Assembly: GCA_903821355.1 (NCBI GenBank)
Contig: CAIJKW010000018.1
Location: forward strand, 1,453-65,452
Reading direction: 5' to 3'
DNA from: an uncultured bacterium
Lineage (GTDB): Bacteria; Patescibacteriota; Minisyncoccia; Phycocordibacterales; CAIZLB01
DNA: 64,000 bases
Position numbers and translations under genes: made by a program. The first letter of the stretch is position 1, and each line of letters starts with the position of its first letter. The notes beneath the pieces are model-generated. The model was not told the DNA's origin, made no database searches, and saw nothing but the letters and a program-made list of their open reading frames with translations. Below are positions 2,368 to 31,031 of the stretch, piece by piece.

Positions 2368-4902
2368 ATGATAAAAAAAACCAAGATATTAGAAAAAATA
2401 AAAAAAGATGACAGCGTGAAAGAAAAGGTGGTGGATGGTAAAAAGAAAACCTTGGTACTGCTTGATTCGCATGCGATTATTCATCGTGGTTATCATGCGT
2501 TGCCAGATTTTGCCACATCCAAGGGTGTGCCAACTGGCGCGCTCTATGGTCTTTCGTCAATGTTAATTGGAATCATTGAAAAATTTAGCCCAGATTATAT
2601 TGTTGCTTGTTATGATTTGCCTCAGCCTACCTATAGACATGAAGCTTACAAGGACTACAAGGCAGGTAGAAAAAAGAGCGATGGGGAATTGGTGGAACAG
2701 CTGAAATCATCTCGTAAAATTTTTGAGAATTTTAACATTCCAATGTACGACAAACCTGGGTTTGAGGCGGATGACATACTTGGAACTATCGTTGAGCAGA
2801 CAAAAGATATATCAAATCTAAATATTGTTATTGCATCAGGGGATATGGACACACTACAACTTGTTCGTGACAAAGAGGTTCAAGTTTTTACTCTAAAGAA
2901 GGGGATTAAGGATACTGTGACATATGATGAAGACGCTGTGGTTGAGCGATTTGGTTTTTTGCCAAAATATTTGCCAGATTACAAGGGACTTAGGGGTGAT
3001 ACATCTGATAATATTATTGGAATTGTTGGCATTGGAGAAAAAACAGCTACAACTCTAATTTCCCATTTCAAAACCATAGAAAATATTTATAAGGTTTTGA
3101 ATGATCGTAAAAAAGATGGCGCTCAAGAGTTTAAAAAACTTGGTATTACCGATAGAATAATTGAACTTCTAAAAAATGGAGAAGATGAAGCTGTATTTAG
3201 TAAAATGCTCGCGACAATCAGACGCGATGCTCCAATTAAGTTTGAATTGTTGGAGAAAACATGGAAAGAGTCTTTTGATATTAATAAAGCTGAGCAGATT
3301 TTTGACGAATTTGAATTTCGTACACTTGGCGCAAGATTAAAAAACATTATGCAGAAGCAGGGTGTTGATGTTTCTGGTAATAACGCATCAGGCGGTGGTC
3401 TATTTGATGCGACCGTTGACGGCAATATTAATTCTACAATACCAACATCGGTTGAAGTTCTAGAAGACATCAGTGATGAGCAAAAGAAAAAGGTTTGTAT
3501 TGCTTTGTGGGTTTTAAATTCCAGTCTAACAAATCCATCGTATGAGGATGTCTTAAGGTATACAAAATCAAAAAAATATGAAGATATAGAAAAATATCTT
3601 CTAAAAGAGATTGAAAAACAAGGATTAAATAGGGTTTTAAATGAGATTGAATTACCACTAATCCCTGTGATTTCAAAAATGGAGGAAGATGGAATTTTGC
3701 TTGATAAAAAATATCTAAAAAAACTATCTGAAGATTATCATGTTGAATTGAGTAGATTGGAAAAAGAAATTTGGAAAATGGCCGGAAGAGAGTTTAATAT
3801 TGATTCACCAAAACAACTCGGTGTTGTAATTTTTGAAGAAATGAATTTGGGAGATGGAATGGGTGCAAAACGTCTCAAAAAAACCGCGTCGGGTGCTCGT
3901 TCGACAAAAGAATCTGAATTGGAAAAATTAAAAGGTGTTCATCCTGTGATTGATAAAATTTTGGAATATAGAGAATTAGCAAAACTACTCTCTACCTACA
4001 TTGACCCATTACCACTTCTTACGGATTCAAAAAATAGGCTACATGCAAAATTTCTACAAGCAGGCACAACAACAGGGAGAATGTCATCGCAAAATCCTAA
4101 TTTACAAAACATTCCAACAAAGACTGATTTAGGAAGGAGGGTTAGGGGCGGATTCATTGCAGACAAAGGTTCTGTCTTGCTTGCTTTTGATTATTCTCAA
4201 ATAGAACTTAGAATTGCTGCAATAATGTCTGGCGATAAAAACTTGATAGAAATTTTCAAAAAAGGACAAGATGTTCACACCGGTGTCGCTTCAAAAGTTT
4301 TTAAGGTCAAAGAAAATGAGGTGACTAAAGACATGCGAAGACAAGCAAAGGTTATTAACTTTGGAATATTGTACGGGATGGGGGTAAACGCACTTAAAAC
4401 AAATCTTGGAAGCACTAAAGATGAAGCTCAAACTTTTTATAATGAATATTTTAAAACTTTCTCACGTGTCGCTGAGTTTTTGGAAGAGACAAAAAGATTT
4501 GCTGAGCAAAATGGTTACACAGAGACACTGTTTGGTCGCAGGCGTTATTTTGAGGGTATTAGGTCTAAACTACCGTTCATTAGAGCTGCTGCTGAGCGTA
4601 TGGCCATTAACGCGCCAATTCAAGGTACTTCTGCTGATATAATTAAAATAAGTATGCGTAAGATATTTGATTATATTAATGATTCCAAAAACAAAGAGGT
4701 TTATGGTCGAGTTAAAATGCTTTTGCAGGTTCATGATGAATTGGTTTTTGAAGTTGTAGATGATAAAGATTTTATAAAGAACATATCAAAACAAATTCAA
4801 AATCTTATGCAGGATGTTTTGAGTGTGGAGCAATCCAAGGGCGTGCCGATTGTAACATCGTCAAATATTGGATTAAATTGGGGAGAAATGAAGGATTTGT
4901 AA
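2368..4902 (+). CDS. polA: DNA polymerase I (5'-3' exonuclease plus polymerase domains)
   Basis: 844 aa; N-terminal 5'-nuclease region; polymerase motifs RRQAKVINFGILYG and LLQVHDELVFEV. Confidence 0.9.
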   Translation: MIKKTKILEKIKKDDSVKEKVVDGKKKTLVLLDSHAIIHRGYHALPDFATSKGVPTGALYGLSSMLIGIIEKFSPDYIVACYDLPQPTYRHEAYKDYKAGRKKSDGELVEQLKSSRKIFENFNIPMYDKPGFEADDILGTIVEQTKDISNLNIVIASGDMDTLQLVRDKEVQVFTLKKGIKDTVTYDEDAVVERFGFLPKYLPDYKGLRGDTSDNIIGIVGIGEKTATTLISHFKTIENIYKVLNDRKKDGAQEFKKLGITDRIIELLKNGEDEAVFSKMLATIRRDAPIKFELLEKTWKESFDINKAEQIFDEFEFRTLGARLKNIMQKQGVDVSGNNASGGGLFDATVDGNINSTIPTSVEVLEDISDEQKKKVCIALWVLNSSLTNPSYEDVLRYTKSKKYEDIEKYLLKEIEKQGLNRVLNEIELPLIPVISKMEEDGILLDKKYLKKLSEDYHVELSRLEKEIWKMAGREFNIDSPKQLGVVIFEEMNLGDGMGAKRLKKTASGARSTKESELEKLKGVHPVIDKILEYRELAKLLSTYIDPLPLLTDSKNRLHAKFLQAGTTTGRMSSQNPNLQNIPTKTDLGRRVRGGFIADKGSVLLAFDYSQIELRIAAIMSGDKNLIEIFKKGQDVHTGVASKVFKVKENEVTKDMRRQAKVINFGILYGMGVNALKTNLGSTKDEAQTFYNEYFKTFSRVAEFLEETKRFAEQNGYTETLFGRRRYFEGIRSKLPFIRAAAERMAINAPIQGTSADIIKISMRKIFDYINDSKNKEVYGRVKMLLQVHDELVFEVVDDKDFIKNISKQIQNLMQDVLSVEQSKGVPIVTSSNIGLNWGEMKDL

Positions 4903-4918
4903 AACAACAATACACAAC

Positions 4919-5641
4919 ATGCTTTATTTACTACACGGTACAAACACAAACAAAGTCAGGGCTAAACAAAAAGAGCTTATTGGTATTATGCAAAGCAAGC
5001 AACCTGATGTTTCTTTGTATAAAATAGCGCAGGAAAATTGGAATGAAAATATTTTGGACGAACTTCTAGGAAGCCAGGGGTTGTTTTTGGCCAAGTACAT
5101 TGTAACCCTTGACGGGCTTCTGGAGAATAAGGAAATTGCACCATCTATCATCGGTATTTTAAACGATTTAAAGGAAAGTGATCATGCTTGGATAATTATA
5201 GAAGAAAAAATTAGTGCACCCAATCTTAAAAAGTTAGAGAAGTTTGTTTTTAAGACTTTTGATTTTAATAACAGTAGTGGCACAGATGAAAAGAAACAAA
5301 GAATAAATGCCTTTAATTTTGCAGAACAGTTTGCTTCCAAAAATAAAGTAGGAGCTTGGAATGAGTTTTTAAAATTAAAAGAAGCTGAACTTGCGGGGGA
5401 GGAGATACATGGAGTGTTGTGGTGGCAGATGAAGTCTGTTTATTTAGCAAAATTTTGTAAAACGGTTGATGATACTGGGTTGACCCCATATTCCTATCAG
5501 AAAGCGCTTAGGTTCTCCAAGGCTTGGGAAATAAAAGAAATAAATACGATATTAGATAGGTTAGTTGAAATGTATCATGAGGCACACAGAGGGAACTCTG
5601 ATTTGTTGGTCAACCTTGAAAAAGTGTCTCTGCAGCTTTAA
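4919..5641 (+). CDS. Hypothetical; weak resemblance to DNA polymerase III delta subunit (HolA-like)
   Basis: N-terminal LYLLHG pattern and position directly after polA; similarity judged by eye only. Confidence 0.3.
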   Translation: MLYLLHGTNTNKVRAKQKELIGIMQSKQPDVSLYKIAQENWNENILDELLGSQGLFLAKYIVTLDGLLENKEIAPSIIGILNDLKESDHAWIIIEEKISAPNLKKLEKFVFKTFDFNNSSGTDEKKQRINAFNFAEQFASKNKVGAWNEFLKLKEAELAGEEIHGVLWWQMKSVYLAKFCKTVDDTGLTPYSYQKALRFSKAWEIKEINTILDRLVEMYHEAHRGNSDLLVNLEKVSLQL

Positions 5642-8127: not shown

Positions 8128-8880
8128 TTTTATTGGAATTGGGCGGGTGCCTAATTTTTGAACAATTTGAACCCATAACACCGAAGTAACAAATGAAAAG
8201 TCTAGTTAGTTCTAGTTCTCAGGTTTTGATGAGTGGCCACGCACTAAGGAGGATGGATCAATGGAGATTGTCGCCTTGGCAAGTCGTCGACAGCTTGGCT
8301 TACGGGAGGGCTTTGGAGATAGAGTCTGGGCGGGACGATTTCCTTGCCGGCATCAAAAAGTATGGAATTTGGAATTTTGCACTTGGTCAAAGCATGACAA
8401 CTGTTGTTGCGCCAGACCATTGTATTATCACCATGTACCCGACCAGACATTTTTTCCTAGGCAAGGACCGGGTTAGATCCATATCACACCTCTCAAGAAG
8501 CCCCTACTTCTTACCAGAGCTCTCCCTTTCCATGAGCTCAAAGTTTGAGGTTTCTGTTTTGGCGCAAGAGCGGGGTGCTCCACGCTTTGCGTGCCCCAAC
8601 ACTTTTGTTGCTAGCAGAATTTGCAAATCAAACAAGACGCCCCAGGTCTTGCAACTACTCAGGTCTCGATGTTTGAAGAAGATGGTAACTTCAATTTGCA
8701 ACGAGGAGTTGGAGGGGTTAATCCCGATTGACATTCGTATAGGAGACGGGGTCAAGATTCCTCTCTCCGCTGTGTTTGAACGGCAGGACCACCAAGGCAG
8801 GACTATTTTGCCGTGGACATCCAGGAGGGATTGATGTTTCAGCCTAGATGGCCCCGCGCGTTTTACGCGCGGGGCCATTC
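8128..8880 (+). other. GC-rich island 1 (about 50% GC): no credible protein, ending in a perfect GC hairpin; candidate structured RNA or decayed foreign insert
   Basis: Sharp GC jump against about 35% flanks; overlapping ORFs on both strands (213 aa on +, 126 aa on -) with Ser/Arg/Leu/Cys/Trp-rich composition typical of non-coding GC-rich DNA; ends in ggccccgcgcg-tttta-cgcgcggggcc. Confidence 0.4.
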
Positions 8881-8940
8881 TCAATTAATCCACTCAAAAT
8901 TTGTCAAAACAACTCTTTTCTGCTATTGTTTCAAATACAT

Positions 8941-11985: not shown

Positions 11986-12822
11986 ATGATAGAAAATAGT
12001 ACAGAAAGCAACAAAAGGGTCGTCGGCATAGATTTTGGTTCAAAAAGGATTGGTATTGCTGTGTCTGATGAATTAGGCTCATTAGCTTTTCCTCTTACAA
12101 CCGTCGTAGGCTTTGGCCACGATACAGAGAAAAAGGAATCAAAAAAAGAGCAGGCGGAACAAGAAATTATGGAAATTTTAAAAGACAAAGATGTCAAGAT
12201 CGTCATAATTGGACATTCCGTCAATTTAAAAGGTGAAGATAATGCCATAATGGAGGATGCTAAGTGTTTGGGTAATAAATTAGAATCGAACGGCTTTAAT
12301 GTCATTTATGAGCCGGAAATGTTTTCCACAGTCCAGGCCAGAAGGTTTCAAACTGAGAACAAGCAGGTTGATGCTTCAGCGGCGGCAATTATTTTACAAA
12401 GTTATTTAGATAGAGTTAAATTTAAAAACATGAATATACAAACAGAGTTAGACAACAATAAGGAAGCAGGTAATAAAGAAGCTGAGGTTGAAAAAAGTTA
12501 CATAACAATAGATGATTTTATAAAAGTTGAAATAAGGATAGGTCAAATTTTGAGTGCAGAAAGAATTGAAGGATCTGATAAGTTATTAAAACTAGCTGTT
12601 GATTTTGGCGAAGAGTCTCCAAGGCAGGTTCTTTCTGGAATTGCAAAGCTTGTCGAAATGGAGGAAATTGTTGGAAAAAAGTTTCCCTTCGTAACAAATC
12701 TTGCCCCAAGAAAAATGATGGGTATGGAAAGTCAGGCTATGATACTGGCCGGAAGTTTTGGTGATGATCTTGCTCTGTTAAATCCTAGCAAAGACTTACC
12801 TAATGGCACAAAACTAAAATAA
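11986..12822 (+). CDS. Fusion protein: RuvX/YqgF-like putative Holliday junction resolvase (N-terminal) plus Myf/EMAP/CsaA-type tRNA-binding domain (C-terminal)
   Basis: N-terminus VVGIDFGSKRIGIAVSD (YqgF/RuvX signature); C-terminus DFIKVEIRIGQILSAERIEGSDKLLKLAVDFGEE...QVLSGIAKL matches the OB-fold tRNA-binding domain of MetRS C-terminus/Trbp111/CsaA. Confidence 0.65.
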   Translation: MIENSTESNKRVVGIDFGSKRIGIAVSDELGSLAFPLTTVVGFGHDTEKKESKKEQAEQEIMEILKDKDVKIVIIGHSVNLKGEDNAIMEDAKCLGNKLESNGFNVIYEPEMFSTVQARRFQTENKQVDASAAAIILQSYLDRVKFKNMNIQTELDNNKEAGNKEAEVEKSYITIDDFIKVEIRIGQILSAERIEGSDKLLKLAVDFGEESPRQVLSGIAKLVEMEEIVGKKFPFVTNLAPRKMMGMESQAMILAGSFGDDLALLNPSKDLPNGTKLK

Positions 12823-15469: not shown

Positions 15470-15541
15470 GCTCTCGTAGTTCAATGGATAGAACTGCGGA
15501 CTTCTAAGCCGTTAATGTAGGTTCGATTCCTACCGAGAGCA
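15470..15541 (+). tRNA. tRNA-Arg (anticodon TCT)
   Basis: Acceptor GCTCTCG/CGAGAGC; anticodon loop CTTCTAA, identical to E. coli tRNA-Arg(UCU); T-arm GTAGGTTCGATTCCTAC. Confidence 0.75.
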
Positions 15542-15659
15542 CAAGAATTAAAACGCCCTTCTGGGCGTTTTAATTTTGGGCGCGAGAGCAAGCCAATTGA
15601 TTGGCTTGCGTGTGAAAATCAAGATATTCTTGATTTAAAAGAAATAAAGAGTAATATCT

Positions 15660-16855
15660 TGATTGGGCGGATTGGCTTAATCGCTAATCCAAATGGACAA
15701 ACACAAACTCGCAAAAAATATGCAAATGATGTCAGATGTTTATAAAGCGTGGGAGCTCAAGTTCAAGGGGTTGCCTGTTCCGCTGGAGACTGTGACGGTT
15801 AAGGGTCCGGGGAATGTTTGTTGGCAGTATGCTTTTGGTCAGGACTGCGAGAAGCTTGTTTGTTCAAGAGATTCTTCAGGTCATGTCAGAAAAGTTCGGA
15901 ACGAAGAGATCCTCTACCCAAGCTCGATTCATGGCAGGGCCAAAGAGCTGAGGGATATTGACGCCCTCAGTGAATATGGTTTTAACAATAAGGGTCCAGC
16001 AGACCATGTTGCCGTTGGCAAGAACGGTTCCCCAGATGTTCACAAGATCTTTGCCTTCAGTCACAGAAGATTTTCCAAATCAAAATATTCCAGAAATATC
16101 ATCAAGACGGCTGCGGAGGATCTAACGACCCTAATGCTCGCCAAGTGCATGGTTCTTCCCAAGAGTAAAAAAAATCTTCGTCAGAGCAAATGGATTTCTG
16201 GCCAAGGCTTTCAAAATACGATGGGGTGGGAATTTGCGCCGACGTTTTGTTGGATGAGGAAAGTCGGAAGTGTTACATTGATGTGGACTCAACGGTTTTG
16301 TTGGCAGTCGACGCTTTACTGATTAAGGAGCGAGACGACAAAAACGCCTTCAGTTTGATGAAGATTAATTGTGAGTTAAAAGATGGAAAAAGTGCCTTAC
16401 CCGCCCCTAAACCATCTTTACTCGTCGTCGATATAAGACGGGGAGGATTTACAAGATATCAGACGCTGACAGGCAGGAGTTTTTTGGAGACCGTGGAGGA
16501 CCACTTTTTGAGGGAATTTTCAGGATGTTGGACAACTTGGAATATGGAGGGAGAATTGAAGTTGAGGAGTCAGAGAAAAAAATCCAAGGAAAGTATTTCT
16601 TGATGACTACAAAAATGGAAACTCACTCGCATAGAAAAGCTTGTTCCACAGACTTATGTTTGAGGGATGTATCCATGGTTGCATCCCTGCTGGACAGTTC
16701 CTTGTCGTCTCTGGTTGGTGTAGCAATACATGTCAACCTGTCAGGCCTAACTTCTTTTGAGGGGGTAGAACTCCTATCAGTTGTGTGGCGTCCGCAAGGT
16801 TCTTTTGCAGCCGAGGATTGTCCTCTGTGCAAACTCAAACCTTAGCGGCAAAACG
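15660..16855 (+). pseudogene. GC-rich island 2 (about 48% GC) between tRNA-Arg and tRNA-Val: three consecutive same-strand ORFs in different frames with no recognisable domains
   Basis: ORFs 15693-16322, 16190-16603 and 16525-16845 overlap in different frames; composition differs from the host; GC-clamp terminator immediately downstream. Confidence 0.35.
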
Positions 16856-16876: not shown

Positions 16877-16908
16877 AAACCCGCTCGGCATCGCCGAGCG
16901 GGTTTCTC
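16877..16908. terminator. Bidirectional GC-clamp terminator serving tRNA-Val (minus strand) and island 2 (plus strand)
   Basis: cccgctcggc-atc-gccgagcggg hairpin flanked by T-runs on both strands. Confidence 0.6.
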
Positions 16909-16914
16909 TGTGTT

Positions 16915-16990
16915 TGGTGGGCGATAAGGGACTCGAACCCCTGACCTTCTCAGTGTAAATGAGTTGCTCTACCAACTGAGCTAATCGCCC
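16915..16990 (-). tRNA. tRNA-Val (anticodon TAC), CCA encoded
   Basis: GGGCGATTAGCTCAGTTGGTAGAGC...anticodon loop TTTACAC...GGTTCGAGTCC...CGCCCACCA; close to E. coli tRNA-Val(UAC). Confidence 0.8.
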
Positions 16991-18557: not shown

Positions 18558-18641
18558 GCGCGAGTGTTGAAACTGGTAGACAAGCACCCTTGAGGTGGGT
18601 GTGCCCGTAAGGGTGTGGAGGTTCAAGTCCTCTCTCGCGCA
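18558..18641 (+). tRNA. tRNA-Leu (anticodon GAG), long variable arm
   Basis: Acceptor GCGCGAG/CTCGCGC, anticodon loop TTGAGGT, long extra arm, T-arm GGTTCAAGTCC. Confidence 0.75.
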
Positions 18642-18669
18642 CATTAAAAAGTATTGCCTGTCGATATTC

Positions 18670-30491: not shown

Positions 30492-31031
30492 ATGAACACC
30501 AATGAAGTTTTCGAAGATCTTTTGAAACTGCCGACCCCTAAAATTATCTTGTCGGGCAAGGTAGATCGGGAGATGCGTAATCGTGTATTCAGGTCTCTTA
30601 CTTTTCTCACAACCAAAGGCTCTCCGGATGTGGAAATCATCATTGAGTCTAGTGGCGGTGAGGTGAGTCACGGCCTCGACATCTATGATGCACTCCGCTT
30701 GTATCAAGGCAAGAAGAAAGGGATTGTCATCTCAGAGGCAGGATCTATGGCGGCAATCATCCTCCAGGCTTGTGACACTCGCCAGTGCGCTTCACACGCC
30801 TACATCCTTGTTCACAATGGAGATTGTCGGATAAAATTTGATGTCCTCTTTGACGATGCCGCTTTGGCTGCATTCAAAAAAGAAAAGCAAGAAACCCTGT
30901 CTCTGCTCCACACAATCCTTTCGACCAAGACCGGCAAAGAGGATCGTGAAGTTGTTGAGATGTGTAAGCCCGATAAATGGATAACGGCACAAAAGGCCTT
31001 AGAACTAGGATTGATCGATGAGATCGTCTGA
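30492..31031 (+). CDS. ClpP-like (S14) serine protease on GC-rich island 3
   Basis: IIESSGGEVSHGLDIYDAL (like ClpP INSPGG...GLAIYDTM), GSMAA catalytic Ser context, ILVHNG His context; about 48% GC against 35% flanks. Confidence 0.55.
   Translation: MNTNEVFEDLLKLPTPKIILSGKVDREMRNRVFRSLTFLTTKGSPDVEIIIESSGGEVSHGLDIYDALRLYQGKKKGIVISEAGSMAAIILQACDTRQCASHAYILVHNGDCRIKFDVLFDDAALAAFKKEKQETLSLLHTILSTKTGKEDREVVEMCKPDKWITAQKALELGLIDEIV

Follow-up and report, generated by a model that had tools for sequence, protein, structure and literature searches.

A GC-rich slot between two tRNA genes

The window, that is, the whole 64-kb stretch of DNA that was analysed, is AT-rich (36.4% GC), and positions 15660-16855 rank highest in GC content among all of its 1.2-kb windows (mean 36.3%, sd 2.8). 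An earlier reading made from the letters alone, referred to here as the sequence-only reading, had described this segment as a GC-rich island of roughly 48% GC; the island is real, but the figure is 45.2%. It lies between two tRNA genes that had also been recognised at that stage and were recovered by both ARAGORN and Rfam. The left border of the slot is formed by tRNA-Arg(TCT) at 15470-15542 on the plus strand, and the right border by tRNA-Val(TAC) at 16915-16990 on the minus strand. The 1.37 kb separating them hold a single gene, which belongs to an unnamed protein family.

Directly 3' of tRNA-Arg, at 15546-15575 on the plus strand, is a perfect 13-bp hairpin (AATTAAAACGCCC/GGGCGTTTTAATT) that looks like the terminator of this tRNA, and the folding z-score for 15500-15699 was strongly negative. 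Further along, still 5' of the family gene, is a 12-bp inverted repeat with an AT-rich loop (15617-15664), inside which lies a weak promoter-like pair, TTGATT-16 nt-TAATAT, that fell under the scan threshold. At the other end of the slot, in the gap that separates the gene from the 3' end of tRNA-Val, a hairpin at 16877-16905 with a 13-bp stem and nine G-C pairs was scored as an intrinsic terminator on both strands, in agreement with the GC-clamp terminator proposed previously. No integrase or recombinase gene was present among the ORFs between the two tRNA genes, and a search of the slot borders for tRNA-derived direct repeats or att-like repeats returned only short direct repeats of 12-22 nt, none of them derived from a tRNA.

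Three overlapping plus-strand ORFs in three different frames had been reported within the island, and the ORF list contains exactly these: ORF1 (209 aa, frame 0, 15693-16322), ORF2 (137 aa, frame 2, 16190-16603), and ORF3 (106 aa, frame 1, 16525-16845). It had been stated that their translations hold no recognisable domain, and Pfam, PHROG, NCBIfam and PADLOC likewise gave no match to any of the three. When the region was shuffled 2000 times, no shuffle contained an open run of 213 codons, or three open runs of 100 codons or more on the same strand. Codon-position composition in the proposed frames is coding-like, with G1 at about 0.31, G2 at about 0.17, and GC3 at about 0.5.

When 1.84 billion cluster representatives were searched exhaustively with HMMER, the matches were the three ORFs themselves (P0001-P0003) and eight homologues (P0004-P0011), some of which are partial; P0004-P0008, P0011, and a further member, P0012, are single-frame proteins of 321-367 aa. 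A profile was built from seven intact homologues, leaving out the window sequence, and was run against the stop-to-stop pieces of the whole window, where it matched only three pieces, and these were colinear. Segment 1, the N-terminal part (15693-16166, plus strand, frame 0), corresponds to profile positions 22-128, matched in piece 15681-16319 with E 2e-18, and to P0004 residues 4-123. Segment 2 (16187-16432, plus strand, frame 2), reading QMDFWPR...LLVVD, covers positions 132-217 (piece 16169-16600, E 6e-16), and segment 3 (16435-16845, plus strand, frame 1), reading KTGRIYKISDADRQEFFGDR ... NLSG ... RPQG ... CPLC and then a stop, covers positions 217-344 (piece 16411-16842, E 3e-42). Using tblastn, P0004 matched at 15792-16151, 16190-16432, and 16435-16830, and when the three translations were joined, P0004 (344 aa) aligned to residues 34-381 in a single stretch (HMMER, E 9e-39). 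The three ORFs are colinear parts of one protein-coding gene, and homology to intact members places the entire gene at 15693-16845 on the plus strand, as a frame of about 384 codons with two 1-base deletions. The reading to which the evidence points, with a probability of about 0.8, is that a protein-coding gene was recently inactivated here and turned into a pseudogene by these two deletions. The suspicion of a frameshift-riddled pseudogene was therefore sound as to the pseudogene, given the colinear pieces and the intact homologues, but overstated the damage, as there are two frameshifts and not many. On this reading, the hypothetical proteins P0001-P0003 in public collections should be merged as one pseudogene.

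The same slot in related genomes

As judged from its ArgRS, the host falls within the Patescibacteria, the best named matches being Paceibacterota/Pacebacteria at 49-54% identity; in closer relatives, for instance GCA_037127815.1 (contig JBAXXP010000001.1), ArgRS identity is 81-87%. Gene order around the island is shared with relatives. On L003, a 30.8-kb contig that carries P0004, the order is as in the window, running from pilM through genes of 183, 180, and 92 aa to tRNA-Arg(tct), the intact family gene, tRNA-Val(tac), RluD, L19, tRNA-Leu, and an M16 peptidase. The order in L029 (P0012) is S20 ... RuvX, tRNA_bind, pilM, genes of 182, 184, and 91 aa, tRNA-Arg(tct), and an intact family gene, downstream of which the contig end falls within tRNA-Val. 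The tRNA-Arg of the window is 100% identical to that of L003 and of L004, and in L004 (P0005) it stands directly 5' of the family gene. The slot is thus filled by the same family in L003, L004, L029, and the window, and no empty slot was seen among these four genomes. A second lineage, represented by L005 and L027 (P0006) and L009 (P0008), has the gene between a 90-aa gene and a malic enzyme gene, and no tRNAs are near the family gene in L005 and L009. An intact single-frame homologue is therefore found in relatives, although not one of known function, and this would make the island an ordinary pseudogene, albeit of an unusual gene.

These occupied slots bear on the proposal of the sequence-only reading that the island is a short foreign segment which a tRNA integration hotspot acquired not long ago and which is now in decay. 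Composition is in its favour (45% GC against 36% for the window, and GC3 of about 0.5 against 0.16-0.39 for native genes), as is the pattern of DNA homology between the window and L003, which breaks off exactly at both tRNA genes, ending at the end of tRNA-Arg (15542) and restarting at tRNA-Val (16914). The encoded proteins diverge in the same way. Flanking proteins of the window share 52-85% identity with those of L003 and 44-84% with those of L029, whereas the family gene shares 40% and 25%, respectively, so that its divergence (25-40% identity) is far above that of its neighbours (44-85%). Such an excess could have arisen if foreign alleles replaced the gene in place, with the conserved tRNA genes as the sites of recombination. 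However, the presence of an intact homologue of the same family in the same slot of L003, L004, and L029 argues against a recent insertion; the slot has neither an integrase nor a direct repeat of tRNA origin; searches of phage, plasmid, and IMG/VR collections yielded no family member; and the second lineage carries the gene beside the malic enzyme gene, with no tRNAs near it. The locus resembles tRNA-linked genomic islands in its position between tRNA genes and in its deviant GC content and codon usage, but it differs from them in holding only one gene, in having neither integrase nor att repeats, and in the recurrence of one family in the slot of four genomes. A recent acquisition is accordingly an improbable explanation of this island.

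Several smaller features of these contigs were recorded. The intact genes of L003 and L004 are each preceded, at a distance of 35-45 nt, by the motif AGGRGTASAGTTTT (2626-2639 in L003 and 134-147 in L004), and a similar sequence is found at about 7960-7975 in L029. Two extra copies in L003, at 3843-3856 on the minus strand and at 3924-3937, make up an inverted repeat of 33 nt on the downstream side of the gene. This motif may have a role in regulation or mark a boundary; neither the window nor any of the other 26 loci contains it. One 278-aa ORF of the window (11986-12822) encodes both RuvX and a tRNA-binding domain, which in L029 are divided between two adjacent 144-aa genes. At 18558-18642 of the window, ARAGORN predicted a tRNA-Leu(gag), for which the Rfam tRNA model was not above its gathering threshold, and a tRNA-Leu(gag) was predicted by ARAGORN in the same position in L003.

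The two breaks in the reading frame

The first frameshift, with one base missing, is confined to 16167-16186 (plus strand), between a TAA stop of frame 2 (16166-16168) and the codon of an invariant Gln at 16187-16189. Its likeliest place is the run of eight A residues (A8) at 16167-16174, and it falls in an interdomain linker that has low pLDDT in the AlphaFold2 model of P0004 (residues 126-134). The second, again with one base missing, is at 16433-16434 (plus strand), where a codon is reduced to 'AT' between the GAT of an invariant Asp (16430-16432) and the AAG ACG of a conserved Lys-Thr pair (16435-16440). All homologues have exactly one residue at this position, and when the junction was set there, identity to P0004 rose to 40% and the motif KT..Y.L.DADR..F.GDR was regained. 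A run of seven A residues at 16576-16582 (A_AAA_AAA in frame 2, within the overlap of ORF2 and ORF3) was considered as the site of the second break and rejected, as the alignment puts the break about 145 nt upstream, and frame 1 matches the homologues already from KTGRIYKISDADRQEFFGDR onward. All homologues are single-frame through both break positions, and neither frameshift is shared by any of them.

Under the pseudogene reading, a deletion at or beside the A8 run would move the frame from 0 to 2, and a second deletion, in the codon between Asp 16430-16432 and Lys 16435-16437, would move it from 2 to 1. A ribosome starting at 15693 would make the N-terminal part followed by 49 out-of-frame residues and would stop at 16322, and the conserved C-terminal two thirds of the protein could not be produced as a single chain. 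The gene shows no decay beyond the two frameshifts, having no in-frame stops and retaining 18 of 20 family-invariant residues, the two changes being conservative (E to D and Y to F). When the intact members were left out one at a time as a control, they changed 0-6 of the 20 invariant residues, so that the pseudogene is no worse than they are. This preservation suggests that inactivation was recent, and the gene is presumably non-functional here, although the lack of other decay would fit an expressed gene as well.

Frameshifted pseudogenes are known from reduced, AT-rich bacterial genomes, and in endosymbionts they include frameshifts in poly(A) tracts that polymerase slippage can rescue in part. 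The present case is similar in being a single-copy gene with 1-base deletions, one of them at A8, and in having intact orthologues at the same position in relatives. It differs in that the second break is off any homopolymer, which means that slippage cannot rescue the product, and in that the host is a Patescibacteria-type MAG and not an insect endosymbiont.

If the breaks were errors of sequencing or assembly, the gene would be intact in the organism. Homopolymers such as A8 are classic error sites, and the otherwise undecayed sequence would be expected of a working gene. Against this, contig L001 (ENA ERZ18662751, two samples) is 100% identical to the window over 15603-16734 and contig L002 (ENA ERZ27313559) over 16096-16623, so that three assemblies with different ENA/NCBI records are identical at both sites, and a contig of a fourth assembly, ERZ1426589, has the same ORF1 including the out-of-frame tail. 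By this comparison of sequences both frameshifts are reproducible across assemblies, which may, however, all represent one strain. The second site is not a homopolymer, which makes an assembly error unlikely there, and taken as a whole this explanation is very improbable.

Recoding would keep the gene functional if both junctions were passed by -1 ribosomal frameshifting or by slippage during transcription. Both shifts are in the same direction, with one base missing at each, and the rest of the gene is undecayed; at the first site, the A8 run could allow slippage to restore the frame in some products, and in frame 0 it reads A_AAA_AAT, which resembles a slippery heptamer. The second site (GAT AT AAG, 16430-16437) lacks a homopolymer and does not fit the X_XXY_YYZ pattern of slippery sequences, while the slippery-looking A7 heptamer at 16576-16582 is not where homology changes frame. 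Since the second site is not slippery and every other family member is single-frame at both positions, programmed recoding has very little to recommend it. Equally hard to credit is a split gene whose fragments work separately, namely ORF1 as the N-terminal domain and ORF2 translated from Met 16190. The first break does fall in the interdomain linker, and the ATG of ORF2 is exactly at a conserved Q-[LM]-E/D-F-W-P motif, but the second break lies inside the conserved VDxKT motif, and the next start in frame 1 is at 16525, which would leave about 30 conserved residues (KTGRIYKISDADRQEFFGDR...) in no translatable fragment.

The idea that the island is a large structured non-coding RNA, or simply non-coding GC-rich DNA, with the ORFs as by-products of GC content, could appeal to a GC-rich segment in an AT-rich genome with RNA genes on both sides and a terminator of its own behind, but it has next to no chance of being correct, being refuted by the protein-level homology to intact genes. 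It is also opposed by the coding-like composition and the shuffles, by Rfam, which reported nothing besides the tRNAs whether run at gathering thresholds or with E up to 10, and by sliding 200-nt folding z-scores of -1.5 to +1.6 on both strands across 15700-16700, with strong structure only in the tRNA and terminator flanks.

The protein family, its fold, and its composition

The intact product is a cytoplasmic protein of about 320-370 aa that belongs to a rare, unnamed family. About ten members are known, so far only from AT-rich metagenomic contigs, and those that can be placed are from Patescibacteria of the Paceibacteria type. Conserved motifs of the family are QLExWPR..YDGFV, LPAxKPxxYFVDxKT..Y.L.DADR, DLCL, SLVG...NLSG.T, and RPQGxY....CPxC. 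No member matched Pfam, NCBIfam, PADLOC, PHROG, or the PDB sequence profile. A word-indexed protein search with the joined protein gave no match, and the same kind of search with the family profile gave only P0009 and the three ORFs of the window. One pattern-based scan of GTDB representative genomes found no family member, a synteny scan of GTDB genomes based on RluD found only distant RluD genes, and a JGI metagenome scan by protein found no match. A degenerate DNA pattern for NLSG...RP...CPxC recovered only the contigs with P0006 and P0007, which were already known.

An AlphaFold2 model of P0004, made from an alignment of eight sequences, had a pLDDT of 78 and a pTM of 0.81. When it was compared to the PDB with Foldseek, all 50 listed matches were proteins of the type I phosphoribosyltransferase (PRT) fold (OPRT, APRT, HGPRT, and the PRT-fold regulator PyrR), with a best E of 7e-5 and probability 1.0, TM scores of 0.5-0.6 per target and 0.33 when normalised to the query, and about 10% identity. 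The best matches among viral models (BFVD) were likewise PRTases. Assignment of P0004 to the PRT alpha/beta fold can be made with moderate confidence. The family stands apart from type I phosphoribosyltransferases in having no sequence similarity to them by Pfam or the PDB profile, in being about 150 residues longer, and in its conserved C-terminal CPxC and His residues. It also has no PRPP-binding signature, which consists of four hydrophobic and two acidic residues followed by ..[ST][ST]G.[ST] (PROSITE PS00103): none of the nine members examined matched, even with loosened patterns, while a control sequence, E. coli Apt, did match. Alignment of the family to this Apt sequence using hhalign was not significant (probability 1%). 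Without the PRPP loop the protein is probably not a canonical PRPP-dependent transferase. It can be suggested, with low confidence, that it binds nucleotides or phosphosugars by means of a type I phosphoribosyltransferase-like fold, and the conserved CPxC, DLCL, and His residues suggest a putative Cys/His metal site. A protein family that had no name before is delineated in this way: it has about ten known members, combines a predicted PRT-like fold and a CPxC C-terminus with the lack of a PRPP motif, and is linked to a tRNA-flanked slot that Patescibacteria of the Paceibacteria type have conserved.

The composition of the family gene sets it apart from its surroundings in more than one host. 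Native genes of the window have GC3 values of 0.16-0.39, and neighbours of the family gene have 0.16-0.36, whereas the family gene in the window, L003, L005, L007, L009, and L029 has a GC content of about 0.44-0.48 and GC3 of 0.43-0.52, with near-uniform use of the four bases at third positions in these host contexts. In L004, where the contig has no neighbouring genes, its GC3 is 0.48. Only three loci in the window reach a GC3 of at least 0.49. A foreign-looking composition is therefore kept across the family copies of the shared slot, and this is a puzzle, for vertical descent in a fixed slot would predict that GC3 drifts to the host value, while repeated import would predict a loss of synteny. 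Two candidate causes of the high GC were rejected: no antisense ORF is conserved across the homologues, and there is no excess folding inside the island. Candidate sources of the composition are selection acting on it and the replacement of alleles by way of the tRNA flanks, which are conserved. If the composition is maintained and not re-imported, it would call into question the customary view that GC islands are recent transfers.

It is possible, though unlikely, that the slot holds a new, fast-diversifying conflict gene, for example one for a defence- or toxin-like protein built on a degenerate PRT fold. PRTase-like effectors are known from anti-phage systems, such as the effector of type III-A3 retrons, e.g., Retron-Eco11 (PMC12746101), and ShosT of ShosTA (PMC11961720). 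The family is like these in placing a predicted PRT-like fold in a fast-evolving accessory gene, with the composition and divergence typical of conflict genes, but differs from them in that no reverse transcriptase, ncRNA, or antitoxin partner lies beside the family gene in five contexts, and PADLOC profiles of defence effectors matched no family member. If the gene is of this kind, its GC-rich, codon-unbiased composition would be actively maintained, or renewed by allele replacement through the tRNA flanks, and frameshifts would switch the gene off in some strains, with the A8 run serving as a contingency tract. Such a role would, if true, explain at once the identity of 25-40% beside flanks of 44-85%, the GC3 of 0.43-0.52 in every host, and the recent inactivation.

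The island was also seen by the sequence-only reading as the second of three repeated acquisitions of foreign DNA. All three islands are compositional outliers and the third varies in presence, but acquisition is not borne out for the second. Island 1 (8193-8884; GC 0.49, GC3 0.54) has a weak codon-position signature and contains a 213-aa ORF, the N-terminus of which matches DUF4258 only below threshold (E 0.023); a 126-aa antisense ORF overlaps it. No island occupies this place in L029, where an ABC transporter gene is followed by a 100-nt gap and then rpsT. Island 3 (30492-31031), between rplK and argS, encodes a ClpP-family protein (GC3 0.51; Pfam CLP_protease, E 1e-25). At the same place a 179-aa ClpP gene is present in L031 and L032 and missing in L030, which is from the L003 genome, and it is this distribution that shows island 3 to vary in presence. 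Another GC-rich orphan gene in an AT-rich host was noted in L005, 2.7 kb from the family gene, at 4033-5298 on the minus strand; it encodes 421 aa, with a GC content of 0.47, a GC3 of 0.47, and no Pfam match. Finally, L031 (4656-7121, minus strand) and L032 (1698-4163, minus strand), from a Patescibacteria relative, encode beside secE-nusG-rplK a protein of 821 aa, with precomputed Pfam matches to MVP_shoulder and, faintly, to Vault_3.
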